NCBI GenBank assembly: GCA_045047115.1
Contig: JASFYR010000024.1
Location: 1 to 32,536 of the forward strand
Reading direction: 5' to 3'
Length of the DNA: 32,536 nt
Origin: Sulfurospirillum sp.
GTDB lineage: Bacteria > Campylobacterota > Campylobacteria > Campylobacterales > Sulfurospirillaceae
Shown here: positions 2,464 through 31,016 of the stretch, piece after piece
Numbering within the stretch: position 1 is the stretch's first letter
Layout: every line of letters begins with the position of its first letter
The notes under the pieces: model-generated
What the model saw: the letters and a program-made list of their open reading frames with translations, nothing else
Database searches by the model: none
Told to the model about the DNA's origin: nothing
Position numbers and translations under genes: made by a program

Positions 2464-3255
2464 TTGAAATTTATTCAGATAAGTGACCCTCATCTAATCG
2501 GAGATGAGCGGCCGTCTTTATACGGAATTGATCCTAATTTTAGACTAGATAAAGCATTTGAAAGTATAAAAAAATGGCATAGTGATGCTAAGTTTGTGGT
2601 AATAACCGGTGATTTAAGCAATAGCGCCTCAGACTTGGCTTATGCCAAACTGCAAACAGTTATAAAAAACAGTAAATTTAGTGTGTATCCAATTTTGGGA
2701 AATCATGATAAAAGAGATATTTTTAAATCATATTTTTCAGAGTTTACAAATGATGGTTTTATCCAATATGCAAAAAAGATAGATGATAAAGCTTTTCTTT
2801 TTTTAGATACTTTGATGGAAGATAAATCGTATGGTGAATTATGTGATAGTCGTATAAAATGGCTTAAAAATCAGTTAGAAATTTATAATAATAAATTTTT
2901 GTATATATTTATGCATCACCATCCAATTTCTTGCGGGATGCACGAGATGGATACTGTGGCAAATTTTAAAACTCAGCAAAAATTTTGGGATTTACTCAAG
3001 CCATATAAAAATATAAAACATATCTCTTTTGGACATATTCATCGCATAATGCATTCATCTAAAAACGGCATATCTTTACACTCTACAAGAAGTACAACTT
3101 TTCAAGTAGCTTATAAGCCTGACAATAAGGTGGAATATTTAACAAATGAAGAAAACCCTACCTATGCGATTATCAATATAGACAAAGACGGTAACACAAG
3201 AGTGCACCATCACGAATACTTGAGCGAAGATAGATTTTATCTAGGAGAGTGCTGA
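2464..3255 (+). CDS. Calcineurin-like metallophosphoesterase, CpdA/Icc/GpdQ family
   Basis: Motifs SDPH, TGD, GNHD, HHHP, GHIH; TTG start. Confidence 0.9.
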   Translation: MKFIQISDPHLIGDERPSLYGIDPNFRLDKAFESIKKWHSDAKFVVITGDLSNSASDLAYAKLQTVIKNSKFSVYPILGNHDKRDIFKSYFSEFTNDGFIQYAKKIDDKAFLFLDTLMEDKSYGELCDSRIKWLKNQLEIYNNKFLYIFMHHHPISCGMHEMDTVANFKTQQKFWDLLKPYKNIKHISFGHIHRIMHSSKNGISLHSTRSTTFQVAYKPDNKVEYLTNEENPTYAIINIDKDGNTRVHHHEYLSEDRFYLGEC

Positions 3256-3274
3256 TTACTCAAGAACCCTAGCT
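3205..3274 (+). repeat. Diverged direct repeat, copy 1 (3' end of phosphodiesterase gene plus junction)
   Basis: 3240-3274 matches 5313-5347 at 30/35 nt; similarity extends back to 3205/5279 with one 1-nt gap. Confidence 0.85.
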
Positions 3275-5278: not shown

Positions 5279-5347
5279 CATCATCAAGAATATATGAATG
5301 AAGATAAGTCTGTCTAGGAGAGTGCTAATTGCTCACAAACTCTAGCT
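5279..5347 (+). repeat. Diverged direct repeat, copy 2 (pseudo 3' end of phosphodiesterase gene)
   Basis: Encodes HHQEYMNED..(1-nt gap)..CLGEC* versus HHHEYLSEDRFYLGEC* in the intact gene. Confidence 0.85.
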
Positions 5348-13756: not shown

Positions 13757-15127
13757 TTGAAAGAGATAAAAATAGATACAAAAAATTCTAGTTCTTCTAC
13801 TTCTGATTTGATTAGAGAAGTTGCAAAAGAGATAGAAAAAACTCCTAAAGAAGGCAGAAGAGATTTTCTACGAAAAGGATTTTTCTTTTCTGTAACTGCT
13901 GCTGCAGCCTTAGGAGGTGTCGGAGCGACAAAACTTCAGGCGGAATCACATGTAAATCCAAAAAACTTACCGCCAAATAATCCTGAGTGGGGTTTAAAAT
14001 GGGGCAGAGACAATAATGCATTTCCATATGGATTGCCATCTAGATATGAACAAAATGTTGTCAGAAGGGATGTTCCTTGGTTAACAGCTGATCAAAAAGC
14101 ATCTATCAGCTTCACCCCGTGGCAAGATTTAAAAGGAATTATAGTTCCAAATGGATTGCATTTTACAAGATGTCATGGAGGCGTTATAGATATAAATCCA
14201 CTTGAATGGAGACTTTTAATACATGGTCTTGTAGATAAAGAAGTTGTTCTCACGCTTGAAGATATCAAAAGATACCCAAGTGTAAGTGTGATTCACTCTT
14301 TTGAGTGTGCTGCAAACAACGGCATGGAATACAGAGGTCCGGGTCTAAATTCACTTCAGGTTACGCACGGTATGCTTGCCTGCTCCGAGTGGACAGGAGT
14401 TCCTTTGAAAGTTATACTGGAAGATATCGGACTAAAACCAGAAGCCAAATGGATGTTTCCTGAGGGATCTGATCCAGCAGGTGTAGGGAGAAGTGTTCCT
14501 ATCGAGAAAGTTTTAGATGATGCAATGTTGGTATATGCGATGAATGGTGAGGCACTCAGACCTGAACAAGGCTATCCTGTAAGACTGTTTCTTCCTGGTT
14601 GGGAAGGAGCTATCCAGGTTAAATGGTTAAAAAGATTGAAGTTTGATACAAAATCATGGATGGTAAGAGAAGAGAGTACAAAATATACCATGCTGGAGTA
14701 TGACGGACATGCAAAGATGTACAATTGGGTCATGGAGGCAAATTCTGTTATTACTTCGCCTTGTCCTGAGCGAAACTGGAAAGGCCTTAAAAAAGGTGTG
14801 GTAAAAGTAGAAGGAATCGCATGGTCAGGAAGAGGAGCTATTACTCATGTTGATGTCTCAACTGATGGCGGTAAAAATTGGAAAGAGGCTAAGTTTACCA
14901 GTTTGGTTCTTCCAAAAGCAGTCACAAGATTTGCGATAGAAATCAATTGGGATGGAAAGCCGATGATGCTGCAAAGCAGAGCAACTGACGATACCGGCTA
15001 TACTCAGCCGACAGCAAAACAGATAGTTGCAGCCCGCGGAAGAGAGGCGGTATATCATAGAAATGCCATTCAAACCTGGGAAGTCAAGAGCAATGGGGAG
15101 GTAAATAATGTACACATCTATGCGTAA
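13757..15127 (+). CDS. soxC: Sulfane dehydrogenase molybdopterin subunit SoxC
   Basis: Tat motif RRDFL, GLHFTRCHGG, ECAAN, NGEALRPEQGYP, QSRATDDTG, YHRNAIQTW; AAGGAG RBS with TTG start. Confidence 0.95.
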   Translation: MKEIKIDTKNSSSSTSDLIREVAKEIEKTPKEGRRDFLRKGFFFSVTAAAALGGVGATKLQAESHVNPKNLPPNNPEWGLKWGRDNNAFPYGLPSRYEQNVVRRDVPWLTADQKASISFTPWQDLKGIIVPNGLHFTRCHGGVIDINPLEWRLLIHGLVDKEVVLTLEDIKRYPSVSVIHSFECAANNGMEYRGPGLNSLQVTHGMLACSEWTGVPLKVILEDIGLKPEAKWMFPEGSDPAGVGRSVPIEKVLDDAMLVYAMNGEALRPEQGYPVRLFLPGWEGAIQVKWLKRLKFDTKSWMVREESTKYTMLEYDGHAKMYNWVMEANSVITSPCPERNWKGLKKGVVKVEGIAWSGRGAITHVDVSTDGGKNWKEAKFTSLVLPKAVTRFAIEINWDGKPMMLQSRATDDTGYTQPTAKQIVAARGREAVYHRNAIQTWEVKSNGEVNNVHIYA

Positions 15128-16259
15128 TCTTACACTGTTGATAGGCTCAGTTGCTTTTGTAACGAACTTAGGAGCCGCAAAACTTGACTATACACCAGCT
15201 GGACCAAACCACTATCCTTACCCTAGTGTTGAAAAAAATAAACAGGGACTTGAAACAAATGTAGATGGTGCGATAATCAGAAAAAAAGTTATCAAAGTAA
15301 AAGAAGTATATAAATCACAAATAAGTGGAAAAAATCATAATTTTGGAAAAAAAGCATCAAGAGAGATTATAAAAGCATGGAATACTGATGTCAGACCAGA
15401 TGGCAAAGGCTTACCTGATGGCAAGATGAGTGTTGAAGAAGGGGCGCAGGTATTTGCAGCAAAATGTGCAGTTTGTCATGGTGACTTCGGAGAAGGAGTA
15501 GATAGATTTCCAGTCTTAGCAGGTGGAATCGGTACCTTGAAGCTTCACCCAAAATCAGGAGGAGACCCGGGGCCTCTGAAGACAATAGGAAGTTATGCTC
15601 CTTATATCGCACCGTTTTTTTGGTACATACAGACAGCTATGCCACTATCTGCTCCAAAATCACTTAGTAATTCTCAGGTTTATGGGATACTTGGATATTT
15701 ACTTCAGTTAAATGAGATAAAAGTAAATGGTGTTGATATAGAGGATAACACCATCATAGATAGAAAGTTTATCAAATCTGTTCACCTGCCAAATGAAAAA
15801 GGATTTGAGTATAACAACCTTAGAAAGCCTGATACCCACAATACAAGATGTATGAAAGATTGCACAGAGAAATCGAAAATGATAGTTATGCATATCAAAA
15901 CAGATGCTACTGTAGTAGACCCGCCATTTGGCAAAGGAAGATACTATTTTGGTACAAATTATAGCAGGACTGTAGAAGCAAAATATCCAAACCATACTAA
16001 AAAAATCTCAAAAGATGATGGAATTGGAAAGAGTGTGTACGAAAATACTTGTGCAGGATGCCATAATTCAGGAGTGGCAGGTGCTCCAAAATTTGGAAAT
16101 AAAGCTGATTGGGCACATGTTGGAAAAGAGAATTTAAAAACAGTATTTGATCATGCTATCAATGGCTTTAATTCAATGCCTCCAAAAGGTGGAGATACAA
16201 CACTTAAAGATGCTGATGTAAAAGATGCCGTTAAATATATGCTGAAAAATAGTAAATAG
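15108..16259 (+). CDS. soxD: Diheme cytochrome c SoxD
   Basis: DVRPDGKGLP, CAVCH, TIGSY, AMP, RCMKDC; second c5-like domain with CAGCH. Confidence 0.93.
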   Translation: MYTSMRNLTLLIGSVAFVTNLGAAKLDYTPAGPNHYPYPSVEKNKQGLETNVDGAIIRKKVIKVKEVYKSQISGKNHNFGKKASREIIKAWNTDVRPDGKGLPDGKMSVEEGAQVFAAKCAVCHGDFGEGVDRFPVLAGGIGTLKLHPKSGGDPGPLKTIGSYAPYIAPFFWYIQTAMPLSAPKSLSNSQVYGILGYLLQLNEIKVNGVDIEDNTIIDRKFIKSVHLPNEKGFEYNNLRKPDTHNTRCMKDCTEKSKMIVMHIKTDATVVDPPFGKGRYYFGTNYSRTVEAKYPNHTKKISKDDGIGKSVYENTCAGCHNSGVAGAPKFGNKADWAHVGKENLKTVFDHAINGFNSMPPKGGDTTLKDADVKDAVKYMLKNSK

Positions 16260-16270
16260 AGTAGATAAGA

Positions 16271-16346
16271 GACCGCAAGGTCAAGCTTTAGTGCAATGAA
16301 TTTATCAGTAATTTACTTCCTGATAAAGAAAACAATTAAATAAAAA
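16271..16346 (+). repeat. Two-hairpin structured repeat, copy 1 (upstream of soxX)
   Basis: GACC-GCAA-GGTC, AAGCTTTAGTGCAATGAA, TTTATCAGTAA-TTTAC-TTCCTGATAAA, GAAAACAATTAAATAAAA, then RBS. Confidence 0.85.
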
Positions 16347-16355
16347 GGAGAAAAG

Positions 16356-16724
16356 ATGATAAACGCAAAGAAATTATTAGCGATAGCCATAATGGGTACA
16401 GTCATTACTTCTGCGGCAAATGCTGCAAGTAATGATGCACTAATCAAAGAAGGAAGAAAAGTATTTGTTACTAAAAAACTTGGTAACTGTCTAGCTTGTC
16501 ACTCGGTTCAAGGTGATCCTAATATTCCCCAAACTGGCAATATTGGTCCAAAACTTGCAAACTTGGATACCTATCCTAAAGCATATCTGTTTGATAAAAT
16601 TTGGGATCCAAATAAAACAGTACCAAATACTCTTATGCCACCTATGGGTAGAAATCATAAGATAACAAAACAACAAATCGATGCAATAGTAGTATATCTA
16701 CAAGCAACAACAAAAGCAAAATAA
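16356..16724 (+). CDS. soxX: Monoheme cytochrome SoxX
   Basis: GNCLACH, GNIGP, IWDP...TLMPP. Confidence 0.95.
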   Translation: MINAKKLLAIAIMGTVITSAANAASNDALIKEGRKVFVTKKLGNCLACHSVQGDPNIPQTGNIGPKLANLDTYPKAYLFDKIWDPNKTVPNTLMPPMGRNHKITKQQIDAIVVYLQATTKAK

Positions 16725-16736
16725 GGAGAGTTAAAT

Positions 16737-17192
16737 ATGAAAAGAAGAAATTTTTTAGGATTAGGTTTTACAACAATGGCGGTAGCAGCTCTACAAACAA
16801 TAAGTAGTGCAAACATACTAAAAGAGCATCCGGCTGCTTTTGATGCTACAAAAGGAGATGCTGCGATAAAGGGAGTTTATGGCACAACAACTGTAGTAAA
16901 AGACGACAAAGCAGTACTGAAACTGCCAGATATCGCTGAAAACGGAGGCGCTGTTCCTGTAACAGTATCTACTAGTTTGGATAATGCAAAATCAATGGCT
17001 CTTATAATAGATGGAAATCCTCGCCCACTGGCAGTTGCTTGGGAACTGCAAGAAGGTACAATTCCAAAATTTTCAACCAGAATAAAAATGAGAAAAACAG
17101 GAAAAGTAAGACTAATTGTAGAAGATGCAAATGGAAAACTGCATGAAGCAATCAAACAGGTAAAAGTTACAGTTGGCGGCTGTGGCGGTTGA
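16737..17192 (+). CDS. soxY: Sulfur carrier SoxY
   Basis: Tat KRRNFL, IAENGGAVP, STRIKM, C-terminal VTVGGCGG. Confidence 0.97.
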   Translation: MKRRNFLGLGFTTMAVAALQTISSANILKEHPAAFDATKGDAAIKGVYGTTTVVKDDKAVLKLPDIAENGGAVPVTVSTSLDNAKSMALIIDGNPRPLAVAWELQEGTIPKFSTRIKMRKTGKVRLIVEDANGKLHEAIKQVKVTVGGCGG

Positions 17193-17222
17193 TACTGGTC
17201 ATCAATAATAGTTCCAAAAAGT

Positions 17223-17436
17223 TCTTATCCAAAGAGTTGTTCTTTGATAAGATGACAATTAAATAAAAAAGTTTCTGACCGTAAGGTCAAGCTTTAGTAG
17301 CGTGTGAATTAACTAGGAATTTACTTCCTAGTTAAGATGACAATTAAATAAAAAAGTTTCTGACCGTAAGGTCAAGCTTTAGTGCAATGAATTTATTAGG
17401 AATTTACTTCCTAATAAAGAAAACAATTAAATAAAA
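17223..17436 (+). repeat. Tandem structured repeats, copies 2 and 3 plus a partial unit (soxY-soxZ spacer)
   Basis: 85-nt period; perfect 51-bp direct repeat 17248-17298/17333-17383; hairpins at 17223-17252, 17276-17289, 17309-17335, 17361-17374, 17392-17418. Confidence 0.9.
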
Positions 17437-17448
17437 GAGGAAATTAAA

Positions 17449-17745
17449 ATGGGAATAAAGGCGATAGCAAAAGTTAAACATGATATAGCAACAGTAAAAT
17501 TACTTGTAAAACATCCGATGGCATCAGGTAAAATTGGCGGTGGCAAAGGTGATCCAAAATACATAAATCATCTTACAGTAAAACATGGTAGCAGATTGGT
17601 ATATGATATGTACCCTACATCAGCAATATCAAAAAACCCCTATATAAAATTTGCATTTAAAGGTGCAAAAAAAGGTGATACAGTTACTGTAGAGTGGAAA
17701 GACAATACGGGAGCAACGGAAAAAAGAGATATCAAGCTAAAGTAA
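17449..17745 (+). CDS. soxZ: SoxZ
   Basis: KHPMASG, ISKNPYIKF, WKDNTG. Confidence 0.96.
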   Translation: MGIKAIAKVKHDIATVKLLVKHPMASGKIGGGKGDPKYINHLTVKHGSRLVYDMYPTSAISKNPYIKFAFKGAKKGDTVTVEWKDNTGATEKRDIKLK

Positions 17746-23165: not shown

Positions 23166-24263
23166 ATGAAAAGAAGAGAATTTTTAGTGGGTTCTGCTTT
23201 GACAATCGGTGCTATAACTATAGTGCCTAGTGAACTGTTTGCAGGAGAGATTAGTAGAAAATTTAAAGTGATTTATGACTTTGATTTAAAGTATGATGAA
23301 AAGAGTTTTCCGGCAAAACTTTGGAATCCGCTTCCATTTAACAGTGACTACCAAAAGGTAAGATTTTTAAAGTTTAGTGGAAACTATGATGATTACAATA
23401 TCAACTCAAACAACCCTTATGATGCAAGGGTTTTGTATGCTAGCTGGAACAAGAGCGACAAGAAAAAGACTCTACATGTAGAGATGGAGATAGAAACAAC
23501 TCCAAGAGAAGTGAGCTTAAAACTCATCAAAAAAGCCAGCAAGCAGAAGCTTCCATTGCCAGAGAATGTCAAGTTTTATCTTGAGCCGACCGAGCATATT
23601 CCGACTGATGGAAAGATAAAGGAGATAGCAGACAAGCTGACCAAAAATATAAACGATACATTTGAAAAAGTCCAAGCCATCTATGACTGGGTGACTCAGA
23701 CTACATTTAGAGATCCAAAGGTGATAGGTTGTGGTGTCGGAAATGCAGGAAAGATGGTTGAGAGTGGGTATTTTGGCGGAAAGTGTACTGATATCAGCTC
23801 TCTTTTTGTAGCACTATTAAGGGCTGCTGGTATACCTAGCCGTGAGGTTTTTGGTATAAGACTTGGAAAGTCATATTACTCAAGAGCTTTGGGAAAATCA
23901 GATAAAAATGGTTTTGCAAATATATCCACATGGCAACACTGTCGAGCTGAATACTATATAGCAGGAATTGGTTGGATACCAAGTGACCCTGCAGATATCA
24001 CCAAGCTTGAGCTTGTAGAAAAGTTAAAGTATGATGACAAAAAAGTACAAGAGTTGCGGGCTAGATATATACACTCATGGGAGATGAATTGGGTGGGATT
24101 TAACCATGCGAGAGATTTTGTGTTGTATCCGAAACCAGAGCAGTTTCCTCTAAATATGCTGGGTTATCCTTATGGCGAAGTTGATGGAGATGTACTGAAT
24201 TACTACTCTCCAAGAGCTTTTTCATACAAAATCACTTCACAAGAAGTTAAATTACTCCACTGA
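23166..24263 (+). CDS. Tat-exported transglutaminase-like protein
   Basis: KRREFL; Cys-His-Asp triad in GGKCTDISS, QHCRAE, WIPSDPAD. Confidence 0.9.
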   Translation: MKRREFLVGSALTIGAITIVPSELFAGEISRKFKVIYDFDLKYDEKSFPAKLWNPLPFNSDYQKVRFLKFSGNYDDYNINSNNPYDARVLYASWNKSDKKKTLHVEMEIETTPREVSLKLIKKASKQKLPLPENVKFYLEPTEHIPTDGKIKEIADKLTKNINDTFEKVQAIYDWVTQTTFRDPKVIGCGVGNAGKMVESGYFGGKCTDISSLFVALLRAAGIPSREVFGIRLGKSYYSRALGKSDKNGFANISTWQHCRAEYYIAGIGWIPSDPADITKLELVEKLKYDDKKVQELRARYIHSWEMNWVGFNHARDFVLYPKPEQFPLNMLGYPYGEVDGDVLNYYSPRAFSYKITSQEVKLLH

Positions 24264-24518
24264 CTAAGTACACCAATTTTTGATGTTTTAGTTTTGTTCA
24301 TAGACAAGACAGATTTTTGCAGGCTTAGCCAAAGCTAAGTCAATAAAATCTAACGAAGTATATGGACAAAACTAAAGCACCCGAAGGGAAAACAGATATA
24401 GGGCAATCTTTAAAGAGAAAAATTCTTGAATTAGCAAATGCTAGTCCTTTAAATTTTTCTATTCAAATCTCACCCTATCTCTATTTTTCAAAAGTTGGTG
24501 TATTTAATCAGTGGAGTA
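24253..24518. mobile_element. 266-bp palindromic MITE-like insert
   Basis: Terminal inverted repeats (24251-24283/24488-24520, 30/33 match), flanking AT dinucleotides, two long internal stems and central CCCGAAGGG; no transposase. Confidence 0.72.
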
Positions 24519-24522
24519 ATAA

Positions 24523-25904: not shown

Positions 25905-25920
25905 TAAAATAGGAGTGGAA

Positions 25921-26367
25921 ATGACTGAGCGTATTACTAAAGATATGGCCAGAAATATCTATTTTGGCGGTGGTCTTTTTGCAATCTTGGTATTTGTGGG
26001 ATTGACATTTGATACTGTAAAACAGATTCCAAAATTGAGCCATGAAAACAAGATAACAAAATCTGTTGCTCTTGGAAAAAAAGTATGGGAAAATAACGAC
26101 TGTGTAGGTTGTCATACTCTAATGGGTGAGGGTGCATACTATGCTCCTGAACTGGGAAATGCATTTAAAAGACTTGGCGGTGGAAATGAAGCGGCGTTTA
26201 AAGCTTATCTTGCAGGTTGGATGGCAGCTCAGCCTCTACATGTAAAGAACAGAAGAAAGATGCCGCAATTTCATCTGACACCATCGCAGGTAAACAATCT
26301 TGCAGATTTTTTAATTTGGACATCTAGGGTTAACAACCAAGACTGGCCACCAAACATACAAGGATAA
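25921..26367 (+). CDS. norC: Nitric oxide reductase cytochrome c subunit
   Basis: ARNIYFGG, CVGCHTLMGEGAYYAPEL, RRKMPQF, WPPN; ATG 25921 after AGGAG. Confidence 0.96.
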   Translation: MTERITKDMARNIYFGGGLFAILVFVGLTFDTVKQIPKLSHENKITKSVALGKKVWENNDCVGCHTLMGEGAYYAPELGNAFKRLGGGNEAAFKAYLAGWMAAQPLHVKNRRKMPQFHLTPSQVNNLADFLIWTSRVNNQDWPPNIQG

Positions 26368-27759
<1,392 letters not shown>

Positions 27760-29529
27760 ATGGATGAAAAAGTCGGTAAGTTTTGGGATAAATATCTGAC
27801 CAAAAAAGCATCCCGACTTTTTGAACATCAAGAGGTTTTATTTGAAAAAAAAGAGAGATCTCTGAAGATATTTTATCACCTCTTAGGGGGTGATAAAGCT
27901 AAAGAGTTACATATAACCGATAAGAGATTTATCAAAACTTCAAGAACTATTTTAGAAAAATTTTCAGGAAAAGGGAGGAGCTTTTTTCTTGCCTGGCAAG
28001 ATGAGAAAGCCCTCTATTTTCCTACAGCCCTCTCATATTTTGATGATAAAAAACTAAATGATATGCACTACTATTGGCTATGTGCAATGCTTTGCAATGT
28101 TGATGTAAGAAATGGCAACATAGCACAAGAAAACAAAAAAGTGGCAGATGAGCTGATAGCAAAGTATCAAGGTTTTGAAGAATTTTATACAAAAGCTAAG
28201 AAATTTTTACTCGAGAACTATTCTGAATTATCATATATTGACTCTTCTTTAAGCGAAGATTTACTAGATGATAACAGTTATCCAAATCCGCTTTGGATTT
28301 ACCCTAGTATCTCTAGCAACTCCAAACTTCTTGATTTTGGCGATGAGGAGATGGGTAGAAAAGATGGTAAAGAGGATAATACTGAAGAGTTAAAGATGAA
28401 GAAAAAAGCAAATCAAACAGATGATGAAAAAGAGAGTGATGGTCTTTTGCTCTTTTTGCCCGAATCTTTGATGAGCTTTATGGAACAAGTCAATGTTGAC
28501 AGACAAGAAAACGACAGCTTCGATGAAGATGCCCTGTACAATGCAGCCGAACTGGACGAGATAACACTCGGAAGAAAAGATGCAAATCTCTCCTCGAGAG
28601 TAAAAATGGACTTGGATATTTCCTCGCAGGATGTAGAGGATTATCCACTGGGTGATGGTTTTTACAGAGATGAGTGGGATTATAGAAAAGAAAATTATAT
28701 AAAAAAGTATGTCCGTCTCCTACCTCAAGTTGCTCTACATGTAGAGCCTGTACCTCTGCCAAAAAGATTAAATAAAATGATGAAAAAGATTCAATCCGAG
28801 CTCGATATGATGGAATTGGACAGGGTAAAGATAGACAATCTTCCATATGGAGATGAGATAAATTTTGATTCTTGGATAGATTACAAGGGGCATCAAAACA
28901 AATCAAATCATTCTCAGAGATTTTTTCAGAGCTTCAAAAAAAAGACAAGAGATATGTCAACACTTCTTTTAGCAGATATATCACTCTCCACAGAGGCGGG
29001 AGTTACTCAGGATATACGAGTGATTGATATGATAAAAGACTCACTTATGGTTTTTTCCGAATCTCTCCAAAGGCTTGAGGATAAGTTTAGTATCTATGCC
29101 TTCTCTTCTATAAAAAACAAAAAAGTAAATTTTCATATAATCAAAAATTTCAAAGAGAGGTATAGTGATTTGGTACGAGGCAGAATCGATGTGATGAAGC
29201 CCGGGTACTATACTCGTTTGGGTGCTGCCATAAGAGAGAGTGCAAGAGTTTTGCAAAAACAGCAGAGTCAAAACAGACTGCTTTTGATACTAAGTGACGG
29301 AAAACCAAATGATACAGACAGATATGATGGACGATATGGGATAGAAGATACCAAAAAAGCCATAGAAGAGGTAAAACAGAAAGGAATAGTTCCATACTGT
29401 ATAACCATCGATGTAGAGGCGAGAGAGTATCTACCCTACCTGTTTGGAAGAAATTCTTATGCACTTATCCGTGATGCAAAGAAACTGCCTAAGGTTTTAA
29501 CGGAAATCTATATGAATTTAACAAAATAA
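27760..29529 (+). CDS. norD: NO reductase activation protein with vWA domain
   Basis: DEWDY, MIDAS DISLS, YTRLGAAIR, LSDGKPND, YGIEDT. Confidence 0.93.
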   Translation: MDEKVGKFWDKYLTKKASRLFEHQEVLFEKKERSLKIFYHLLGGDKAKELHITDKRFIKTSRTILEKFSGKGRSFFLAWQDEKALYFPTALSYFDDKKLNDMHYYWLCAMLCNVDVRNGNIAQENKKVADELIAKYQGFEEFYTKAKKFLLENYSELSYIDSSLSEDLLDDNSYPNPLWIYPSISSNSKLLDFGDEEMGRKDGKEDNTEELKMKKKANQTDDEKESDGLLLFLPESLMSFMEQVNVDRQENDSFDEDALYNAAELDEITLGRKDANLSSRVKMDLDISSQDVEDYPLGDGFYRDEWDYRKENYIKKYVRLLPQVALHVEPVPLPKRLNKMMKKIQSELDMMELDRVKIDNLPYGDEINFDSWIDYKGHQNKSNHSQRFFQSFKKKTRDMSTLLLADISLSTEAGVTQDIRVIDMIKDSLMVFSESLQRLEDKFSIYAFSSIKNKKVNFHIIKNFKERYSDLVRGRIDVMKPGYYTRLGAAIRESARVLQKQQSQNRLLLILSDGKPNDTDRYDGRYGIEDTKKAIEEVKQKGIVPYCITIDVEAREYLPYLFGRNSYALIRDAKKLPKVLTEIYMNLTK

Positions 29530-29611
29530 GTATTTCTCAAACTCACTTCTTAGAGGCAAATCCTCCCGTTGGTCTGAGCCTCACAAAGCGAGTTTGAGAA
29601 ATACTTATTTT
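29523..29611. repeat. 89-bp long inverted repeat between norD and norQ
   Basis: Perfect 22-bp arms AAAATAAGTATTTCTCAAACTC / GAGTTTGAGAAATACTTATTTT plus inner GAGGC/GCCTC. Confidence 0.85.
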
Positions 29612-29635
29612 AAGATAGCAAAATTAAGGAAAATT

Positions 29636-30430
29636 ATGTCAAAAACTTACTATTTACCACAGTCAAATGAGGTTGAACTTTTTAAAGCGGCAGCTGGTAT
29701 GAATCTGCCTATTTTGATAAAAGGGCCTACCGGATGTGGAAAAACAAGATTTATAGAAGCTATGGGTGAAGAGCTTGGAAGAGATGTTTACACAGTAGTA
29801 TGCCACGATGATTTGAGTGCGGCGGATTTGGTAGGCCGTCACTTGATAGATGAGAATGGAACATATTGGCAAGATGGCCCACTCACAAAAGCTGTGCGAA
29901 ATGGAGGGATTTGCTATCTTGATGAGATTATTGAGGCAAGAAAAGATACTACTGTTATCTTGCACTCTCTGGCTGATTATCGTCGAGTTTTGCCGATAGA
30001 CAGAACGGGAGAAGTGATAGAAGCACATCCTGACTTTATGTTGGTTGTTTCTTATAACCCTGGTTATCAAAATGTTTTAAAAAGGATGAAACCTAGCACC
30101 AAACAGAGGTTTATATCTCTCAGTTTTTCTTATCCAAAATCAGATATCGAAAAAGAGGTTATAGTCAAAGAGAGTGGTGTAAATGAAGATATAGCACAAA
30201 AACTTGTGAGTATCGCAGGAGAGATTCGTCGCCTAGATGACGATGAAATTCAAGAAGCAGTATCAACCAGACTTTTGGTGTATGCAGGAAAACTGATAGT
30301 TAAAGGTTTTGATCCATACCAAGCTTGTATACACTCTATAGTTGAGTCTTTGAGCGATGAAGAAGATGTGCTTGAAGTATTGGAAAAACTCATATCACTA
30401 CACTTCCAAAAGAGTGAGCATGTCAAGTAA
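29636..30430 (+). CDS. norQ: CbbQ/NirQ/NorQ AAA+ ATPase
   Basis: KGPTGCGKTRF, CHDDL, WQDGPL, YLDE, SYNPGYQ, STRLL; ATG 29636 after AAGGA. Confidence 0.95.
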   Translation: MSKTYYLPQSNEVELFKAAAGMNLPILIKGPTGCGKTRFIEAMGEELGRDVYTVVCHDDLSAADLVGRHLIDENGTYWQDGPLTKAVRNGGICYLDEIIEARKDTTVILHSLADYRRVLPIDRTGEVIEAHPDFMLVVSYNPGYQNVLKRMKPSTKQRFISLSFSYPKSDIEKEVIVKESGVNEDIAQKLVSIAGEIRRLDDDEIQEAVSTRLLVYAGKLIVKGFDPYQACIHSIVESLSDEEDVLEVLEKLISLHFQKSEHVK

Positions 30431-31016
30431 ACAATTAACAAGAGAGCCGTATCCTCCCGGGGATTTTGCTATTTGGATCATCATATATGTTGAGTTGGTG
30501 ACTTTTGGACTGCTCTTTGTGGGTTATGCCTTTTCAAGGCGAGCTGATGTGTTGACATTTAACAAATCGCAGTTGATCTTAAATCAAACTTCAGGATTTA
30601 TAGATACTCTTATACTTATAACTAGCAGTTATTTTATAGTCAAAGCTCTTCAGGCCATAAAATCACCGGATTTAACTCTTAAAAATGCAAATCATACAGC
30701 TTCAAAGTGGTTGCTCTCGGCCATAGCTTTTGGAGGTATGTTTTTGGTAAATAAACTCTTGGAGTTTTCGGCTATATTTGGGCAGGGCATTACTTTGAGT
30801 ACAAATAAATTCTTTATGTTTTATCTCTTGCTTACGATGTTCCATTTTATGCATGTAACACTAGGAACTGTTATACTTTTTAATATTTTCAAAAAGACAA
30901 AAAAAGAGGGCTATAGCAAAGAAGATCACAGGGGTTTAGAGACGGGTGCTGTGTATTGGCACCTTGTGGATCTGTTGTGGATTGTACTTTTTCCACTTAT
31001 TTATATCATCAGATGA
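30420..31016 (+). CDS. norE: Cytochrome c oxidase subunit III-like protein NorE
   Basis: PPGDFAIW, ELVTF, LITSS, FHFMHV, YWHLVDLLW..LFP. Confidence 0.88.
   Translation: MSSKQLTREPYPPGDFAIWIIIYVELVTFGLLFVGYAFSRRADVLTFNKSQLILNQTSGFIDTLILITSSYFIVKALQAIKSPDLTLKNANHTASKWLLSAIAFGGMFLVNKLLEFSAIFGQGITLSTNKFFMFYLLLTMFHFMHVTLGTVILFNIFKKTKKEGYSKEDHRGLETGAVYWHLVDLLWIVLFPLIYIIR

Follow-up and report, generated by a model that had tools for sequence, protein, structure and literature searches.

A two-hairpin repeat in the sox cluster of a Sulfurospirillum genome belongs to a dispersed, probably mobile family at translation start/stop junctions

We analysed a 32,536-nucleotide stretch of a Sulfurospirillum sp. 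genome (assembly GCA_045047115.1, contig JASFYR010000024.1), hereafter called the window. It carries a sox cluster comprising soxC, D, X, Y, Z, A, a SoxAX-binding-protein-like gene and soxB. The names of soxC, X, Y, Z, A and B were confirmed by scores above the NCBIfam cut-offs, and the closest named relatives of soxA lie in Campylobacterales genome bins, including Sulfurospirillaceae and Sulfurospirillum, at 79-87% identity. Copies of a structured repeat occupy the spacers in front of soxX and soxZ:

15108..16259, + strand: soxD-type c cytochrome gene, upstream of copy 1; named by its place behind soxC, with no NCBIfam model over cut-off
16271..16345, + strand: repeat copy 1, of the subtype without its own start codon (covariance model R2, 72.3 bits); hairpin 1 16271-16282, linker 16283-16300, hairpin 2 16301-16327, tail 16328-16345
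16346..16358, + strand: start codon of soxX with its native ribosome-binding site, immediately following copy 1; the same site is found in relatives with an empty junction
16356..16724, + strand: soxX (TIGR04485)
16737..17192, + strand: soxY (TIGR04488)
17225..17268, + strand: 5'-truncated, decayed remnant of the repeat; hairpin 2 17225-17250, tail 17251-17268
17277..17353, + strand: repeat copy 2 (covariance model R2, 91.3 bits); hairpin 1 17277-17288, linker 17289-17308, hairpin 2 17309-17335, tail 17336-17353
17362..17436, + strand: repeat copy 3 (covariance model R2, 83.9 bits); hairpin 1 17362-17373, linker 17374-17391, hairpin 2 17392-17418, tail 17419-17436
17437..17451, + strand: start codon of soxZ with its native ribosome-binding site, immediately following copy 3
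17449..17745, + strand: soxZ (TIGR04490)

An initial annotation, made from the letters of this stretch, had described three full copies with a hairpin-linker-hairpin-tail layout; their starts at 16271, 17277 and 17362 were confirmed, and its fourth, partial unit proved to be a remnant consisting of hairpin 2 and tail. The 256-nt gap that it reported between soxY and soxZ is correct, and copies 1 and 3, which are 91% identical to each other, do end at native ribosome-binding sites. Other parts of that description held only in part: the second stem of 11 bp has one T-C mismatch in copy 1, which forms 10 of the 11 pairs; the GNRA first loop and the supposedly invariant TTTAC second loop hold inside the window, but genome-wide they make up only 5 of 35 four-base first loops and 15 of 63 second loops, respectively. 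A stop codon precedes the full copies and an intact native site follows them, and each carries an open frame with no start in front. Copies 2 and 3 are predicted to fold better than their shuffled versions (z -3.7 and -3.5), whereas copy 1 taken alone folds no better than shuffles (z -1.5).

The window holds other elements besides. A nitric oxide reductase-type cluster lies near sox at 25915-31016 (cytochrome c, COX1-family subunit, VWA protein, NorQ ATPase, COX3-like), and the spacer between its norD-like and norQ-like genes contains a second palindromic dispersed repeat (29523-29611), whose core recurs on nine other contigs and of which a copy on contig C3 (~1359-1430) has attC-like complementary ends. 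At 24251-24520 we found a 270-bp MITE-like element with 33-bp terminal inverted repeats, present in full on C10 and C11 (87-89% identical) and in an ends-only form on C12. A 35-base hairpin repeat with two copies (3240-3274 and 5313-5347, 86% identical) sits at gene ends and was found nowhere else in the genome. Among relatives, the soxZ-soxA spacer of two loci (L063, L064) carries a different insert, ~120 bases long, whose ends are short inverted sequences and whose minus strand forms a GTAG-type hairpin.

The repeat seen at sox measures ~80-85 bases over the genome as a whole and consists of hairpin 1 (4-6 pairs, closed by C-G), a linker that hardly varies (GCTTYAGT followed by five to seven bases and GAA), hairpin 2 (11 pairs and a five-base loop) and a purine-rich tail. 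Over 63 copies of this genome, the commonest second loops are CTTTG (22) and TTCAC (17), followed by TTTAC; GNNA accounts for 26 of the 35 four-base first loops, and 17 further copies have an AAA triloop. The tail exists in two subtypes: one consists of a Shine-Dalgarno sequence plus an ATG (39 of the 63 aligned copies of the genome), and the other, to which the sox copies belong, has a stop-like, A-rich end in front of the native site.

Covariation of the stems, claimed in the initial annotation, is real and strong in both hairpins. Among 130 distinct copies from this genome and its relatives, 91.8% of cells were paired, 14 of 16 pairs showed changes on both sides, and the covariation score was 0.71 as compared to 0.22 for shuffled and at most 0.20 for slid alignments, in an alignment fitted to the covariance model and made of related copies, whose counts are therefore not independent events. 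An unfitted alignment gave 96% pairing with double changes in 9 of the 11 hairpin 2 pairs; hairpin 1 was counted there in a three-base-loop register and is thus under-scored. Mismatches of the G-T type were favoured over A-C (74:14, and 17:2 in distinct stems), which indicates that the sense strand is the folding strand. This bias fits RNA and single-stranded DNA equally well, and strand-biased mutation could contribute to it. The sense strand was also predicted to fold better than its complement in 121 of the 130 copies. In 68 copies the Shine-Dalgarno core was predicted to be open (0.84 unpaired). A closing stem that hides the Shine-Dalgarno sequence can be drawn for some variants; we rejected it, as neither mutual information nor accessibility supported it. 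Two separate observations concern the anatomy. In its commonest variant, the linker is similar to the sarcin-ricin loop of the same genus (23S rRNA of genome G012, locus L179), agreeing with it at 11 of 13 aligned positions but lacking one A of the bulged-G strand, a likeness noticed post hoc. A GC-rich insert of ~37 bases with an apparent 5-base duplication is nested in the loop of hairpin 2 at several places (G000 C9:65226 and C11:39454; L065; the nusG-rplK spacer of G003), apparently a second small element that targets the repeat.

The 2.14-Mb genome contains ~80 copies of the repeat at 69 loci, 52 of them single and 17 double. An iterated profile search returned 86 matches in the genome and none in the reversed genome, so the repeat is not a product of chance; covariance model R2 found 77. 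The downstream genes, which we named from their translations, presumably include rplK, rplL, rplM, rpsG, rpoC, rpoZ, secY, dnaK and clpB, as well as guaA, purS, argF, leuB, thrB, hemN, flgE and flgG. With such a range of unrelated genes behind it, the element is not specific to sox. Its orientation is fixed rather than random, random orientation being what the initial annotation had set against its own proposal: in gene calls from a simple ORF script, the downstream gene was co-stranded with the repeat at 57 of the 59 loci with a called gene, and 54 of the 59 had a co-stranded upstream gene. Downstream, the two exceptions were one shadow ORF opposite rplL and the copy within the RNase P RNA; among 96 matches in relatives, all 12 orientation exceptions are likewise shadow ORFs opposite rplL or rplK. 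Replication does not explain the orientation: 50 loci lie on the leading strand, 15 on the lagging strand and 4 are unclear (genes: 1178, 729 and 146), a slight leading-strand enrichment only, and the 15 lagging loci still follow transcription. Sites inside operons are preferred (52 of 57 loci as compared to 78% in the background, p 0.007).

Searches with model R2 covered the phylum Campylobacterota. In the family, 50 of 61 genomes had matches, from none to at least 74 copies per genome: the window's own genus carries 21 to at least 74, two other genera 7-52 and 11-40, and a fourth, genus g4, only 0-3, with no match in 11 of its 28 genomes. In a sample of the phylum, matches were found in 11 of 151 genomes, with 1-5 copies in four other families and none in the 53 and 60 genomes of the two largest families of that sample; a second sample, largely overlapping the first, gave 7 of 101. 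Low-copy genomes share recurring sites (hemB-argF, grpE-dnaK, flgD-flgE and the RNase P RNA). Some copies are old: at hemB-argF, RNase P and grpE-dnaK they have persisted in orthologous positions in different genera, and this conservation suggests a benefit to the host.

Among the 11 close relatives that cover the sox junctions, soxY-soxZ is filled in seven, soxD-soxX in three and soxX-soxY in two; variants and numbers vary, with up to five matches at soxD-soxX, and no copy was found at the sox junctions of 13 distant loci. The variant of sox copies 1 and 3 has its best match outside the window in front of an rpsJ-like gene in genome G003 (88-89% identity), closer than any copy at a sox locus (at most 74% for copies 1 and 3). 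Copy number ranges from 0 to 5, with differing variants, at sox, nusG-rplK, rplA-rplJ, rpoB-rpoC, rpsL-rpsG, hemN, thrB and guaA; in the rpl-rpo region, the relatives listed have from 0 to at least 5 copies per junction, and variants differ at orthologous sites. At rpoB-rpoC, three genomes have a stop/start overlap; filled genomes keep the overlap and add the repeat and a second start behind it. The hemN junction is empty in four genomes, which show one site, filled in eight and uninformative in one, and in three filled genomes (G000, G009, G002) a native AAGGT site and start codon still stand upstream of the repeat. At guaA, 7 of 14 genomes are filled and the native site is retained in front in the same way. 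At thrB of G003 only the repeat tail is left, serving as the ribosome-binding site. Comparing empty sites with filled ones at hemN, rpoC, guaA and soxD-soxX revealed a short direct duplication whose length varies between ~4 and 14 nt. Within arrays, the 5'-most unit is often truncated, as at 17225-17268.

One copy sits inside helix P12 of the RNase P RNA of the window's genome. The same repeat extends P12 in five genomes of three genera (G000, G015, G020, G021, G026) and is missing from 9 of the 10 parsed genomes of its own genus; G044 has a related, rearranged insert. We rejected an origin of the family from P12: most of the order has a short P12, and a full repeat was seen in 0 of the 30 parsed loci outside the family (45 of 47 loci could be parsed in this comparison). 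Insertion into P12 is hence the simpler account, although the direction is not proven. Insertions of dispersed repeats into RNase P RNA are known from Rickettsia RPE and cyanobacterial STRR; what they have in common with the present case is a dispersed repeat tolerated in P12, and what differs is the element itself. Helix P12 is described as variable and sometimes dispensable (PMC2858038). Other long P12 insertions were seen in L124 (G149; 147 bases), L118 (G224; 90) and L147 (G004; 78), and the one in G149 contains a hairpin resembling hairpin 2.

At 46 loci, the flank upstream of the repeat matched the gene's own start over a mean of 5.5 nt, compared to 4.6 nt after permutation (reached in 0 of 2000 permutations). 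An ATG lies 75-90 nt upstream in 24 of the 66 start-bearing copies, 23 of them at 79-83; of the mini-ORFs that open there (26-28 codons), 16 terminate on the real start or shortly ahead of it, 2 are in frame with it and 6 end in some other way. The remaining 42 copies have no such ATG, and some of the upstream "old starts" are tails of earlier tandem copies rather than native sites. Of 40 distinct copies, 29 are open in the frame that runs into an ATGA overlap, as compared to 8.5 in shuffles (13 and 11 for the other frames), and 36 of 39 genes behind start-bearing copies begin with ATGA, against 54% of 1075 background starts (p 2e-7) and 9 of 15 genes behind the start-less subtype; the copies being related, neither count consists of independent events, and the fourth base of ATGA may belong to the repeat itself.

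Searching for an enzyme that could move the repeat, we found no mobilising enzyme adjoining any copy and no reverse transcriptase. The genome encodes three Y1 transposases, one IS110 transposase and one integron integrase, all away from the copies, and the flanks of these genes do not match the repeat profile: the contigs of two Y1 genes are devoid of repeat matches, and the third gene is 14.5 kb from the nearest copy. The integrase (G000 C2:58983-59927) scores over its curated cut-off and lies near a contig end. Behind it, a palindromic, GC-rich stretch lies on the opposite strand, and no cassette array is assembled on that contig. Integrase genes occur in 9 of 13, 8 of 14 and 2 of 3 genomes of the repeat-rich genera as compared to 1 of 28 in the repeat-poor genus. 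A RAYT-like Y1 gene (L089 1450-2238, G000 C7) is present in 52 of the 61 family genomes, often as one close copy; it was rejected as the mobiliser, since it does not track copy number. In G000 C7 this gene has a short flanking inverted repeat and looks domesticated. Another contig (L087, G000 C20) carries an IS605-type element whose tnpB frame is apparently interrupted by a stop near its 5' end. In viral contigs, the linker pattern gave one exact match, apparently by chance, in coding-like sequence without hairpins.

All together, we consider it probable, though by no means certain, that the repeat is a non-autonomous mobile interspersed element that colonises translation start/stop junctions inside transcripts. 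Copies have been gained and lost, expanded in tandem and exchanged for other variants at orthologous sites; several inserted copies retain the old ribosome-binding site and start codon upstream; and an open frame runs through start-bearing copies to the ATGA overlap. Such an element would enter by a strand-specific event involving the folded sense strand, as DNA or RNA, with a crossover in a short core common to the repeat tail and the start/stop contexts. Of 696 occurrences of the six-base core in spacers, only 228 are in sense and co-directional; the core is too common to account for the choice of site, and selection or a transcription-linked step must add to it. After insertion, the old start would drive a mini-ORF of 26-28 codons ending on the new start, and translation of the gene would resume through coupling or from the site that the repeat brings, so that insertion would cost little. 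For the sox copies, whose tails carry no start, this coupling step does not hold. Arrays would lengthen by duplication in place, be worn down from the 5' end and undergo conversion among copies; loss would occur by recombination between repeated ends and may leave the tail behind as the ribosome-binding site of the gene. The stems would be kept mainly because spread needs them, and some old copies may also stabilise mRNA or pattern its decay. A candidate role in mRNA processing or stability is plausible, and the fairly high occupancy of soxY-soxZ means that the copies may have a local effect on the sox mRNA.

The initial annotation had put first an RNA structure that acts inside the operon and sets subunit stoichiometry, with a domesticated dispersed repeat as its second option. 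The copies found throughout the genome support the second option, perhaps with partial domestication. A regulatory RNA peculiar to sox, riboswitch-like or protein-binding, that tunes the levels of SoxX and SoxYZ would suit the positions before soxX and soxZ and the close identity of copies 1 and 3; we give it next to no credence, because ~80 copies stand before unrelated genes, the rpsJ-like match in G003 is closer than any copy at a sox locus, and the sox junctions of several relatives are empty, their occupancy being patchy with differing variants and numbers. A more general host-selected module for processing or stabilising mRNA inside operons, with spread as a secondary matter, is compatible with a mobile repeat and keeps a modest chance of being the main explanation. 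Endonucleases of the RNase Y/J type set off a logic of cutting followed by 5'-3' decay, in which protection of the 5' end matters; an endonuclease might thus cut in or before the linker, and hairpin 2 together with the ribosome might shield the new 5' end, raising the downstream cistrons. The strand-specific folding, the near-invariant unpaired linker, the preference for operon-internal sites, the many highly expressed downstream genes, the predicted openness of the Shine-Dalgarno core and the old conserved copies, with soxY-soxZ filled in most relatives, all agree with it, and there is a precedent in bcr3, described as correlated with longer half-life (PMC3446304). Against it, orthologous junctions are empty in near relatives and hold up to five copies elsewhere, many g4 genomes do without any match, a cleavage site within helix P12 of RNase P would be a liability, and duplicated starts with an open coupled frame point to insertion. 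Somewhat less probable, and in our estimate unlikely, is an RNA-type self-propagating element that homes on initiation regions through a transcription-linked intermediate and an enzyme new to such repeats, has given dozens of core genes (about one gene in fifty in this genome) a ribosome-binding site and start codon of its own and uses the linker as a protein- or ribosome-binding motif. If this were true, the repeat would be both a parasite and a genome-wide, fast-evolving layer of translational and mRNA-decay control.

The resident enzymes suggest two further routes to mobility, neither of which we think has much of a chance. Gene-less attC-like units moved by the integron integrase into secondary sites would agree with the integrase of this genome and its tracking of repeat abundance at the genus level, with the head-to-tail oriented arrays, and with GTTRRRY, which we take to be the attC core motif, in 23 of 130 tails. 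The attC site is, as a rule, one long imperfect palindrome with complementary cores at both ends; in the repeat, 1 of 130 copies has the complementary 5' core, complementarity between the ends does not exceed that of shuffles, and two separate hairpins replace the single palindrome. Moreover, genomes of the rich genera with and without integrase do not clearly differ (45.6 and 30.5 copies, p 0.07), genome G029 has the integrase and no copy, and the genera offer few independent contrasts. This makes the integron route very improbable, and we rate a little lower still a palindrome of REP/REPIN or IS200/IS605 descent that a Y1 (HUH) transposase moves by acting on single-stranded DNA hairpins. Most first loops read C(GNNA)G or C(AAA)G, which to our mind recall stable DNA mini-hairpins, and three Y1 genes are at hand; but no copy flanks any of them, IS605 ends differ from those of the repeat, the RAYT-like gene is present in 26 of the 28 repeat-poor g4 genomes and was not found in G011 (29 copies) or G012 (21 copies), GTAG occurs in only 27 of 130 copies, and inverted pairs were never seen.

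If the preferred reading of a mobile repeat at start/stop junctions holds, a tiny element can enter the most constrained non-coding sites that a compact genome has, since it restores what its arrival breaks. Ribosomal, RNA-polymerase and biosynthetic genes are entered at their starts, and the RNase P RNA is not spared. Mobility and effects on translation are testable, as the 61 family genomes span 0 to at least 74 copies and offer empty and filled alleles and low-copy relatives. In practice, start codons are easily mis-called in these genomes, as in-frame or overlapping extensions of 27 codons, and covariation together with a place before a pathway gene is not in itself an indication of a pathway-specific regulator.

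Concerning known classes, Rfam gave no match in the window at the gathering threshold, and none of the matches up to E = 10 covers a copy, in line with the earlier remark that no known riboswitch fits. Several classes were tried and rejected: REP/REPIN (GTAG as above, CGTC in 13 of 130, and no RAYT gene flanked by copies); MITE (longest complementary end run 3.75 as compared to 3.67 in shuffles, 130 copies); integron attC, on the core counts given above; an IS200/IS605 derivative (ends unlike the resident IS605, and no profile match on that contig); and an intrinsic terminator, as no stem with a U-run lies on the + strand at the copies and the scan overall gave 8 hits against 6.0 by chance, including two weak antisense matches at hairpin 1 of copies 2 and 3. 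No sigma-70-like site was detected inside the three window copies, in a scan that stayed at chance level overall (32 vs 37).

We found no description of this repeat in the openly readable literature; it is an undescribed family that works like the MIRUs and resembles Neisseria REP2. How MIRUs spread is, to our knowledge, still open. As far as the accessible parts of the sources go, MIRUs are 40-100 bp long, present in dozens of copies, located in operon spacers and transcribed, with empty and filled sites, short direct repeats and an internal ORF coupled to the downstream gene at -4 spacing (PMC12548453, PMC3184786). Compared by these described features, our repeat shares the dispersal in operon spacers in the orientation of adjacent genes, the empty and filled sites with a short direct repeat and, in its start-bearing subtype only, hence not in the three sox copies, the internal ORF coupled at -4. 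It differs in its phylum, in being AT-rich with two covarying hairpins and a near-invariant linker, in bringing its own Shine-Dalgarno sequence, in having a second subtype with neither start nor usable ORF, and in that no terminal inverted repeats were found. The bcr1 and bcr3 repeats of Bacillus cereus are reported as mobile, transcribed and often located in housekeeping operon spacers, with compensatory changes that keep the RNA structure; bcr1 is a MITE-like cruciform of ~155 bp with a 5-bp duplication, for which the accessible text describes no start-codon targeting (PMC3184786, PMC3446304). REP/BIME families of the GTAG and CGTC types have been reported, in the portion of the source at hand, for Sulfurovum (PMC3733652); they too are short palindromic intergenic repeats, but REPs are 20-40 bp long, often form inverted dimers, lie mostly downstream of genes and are common between convergent genes, whereas our repeat measures ~83 bp, is arranged head to tail, lies upstream of starts and has no constant tag. 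Neisseria REP2 and Borrelia IR-A/IR-B are described as having two internal stem-loops, a ribosome-binding site as well as an ATG directly upstream of genes and no terminal inverted repeats; REP2, of 120-150 bp, is said there to carry a promoter and to head co-regulated genes (PMC3184786). Our repeat likewise joins two stem-loops to a ribosome-binding site and ATG, the latter two in the start-bearing tails only, but most of its copies are operon-internal, and for REP2 the accessible text mentions neither tandem arrays nor old starts that were retained. The strategy of rebuilding the invaded site is known from MIRUs, and the present repeat is a second, structured case of it.
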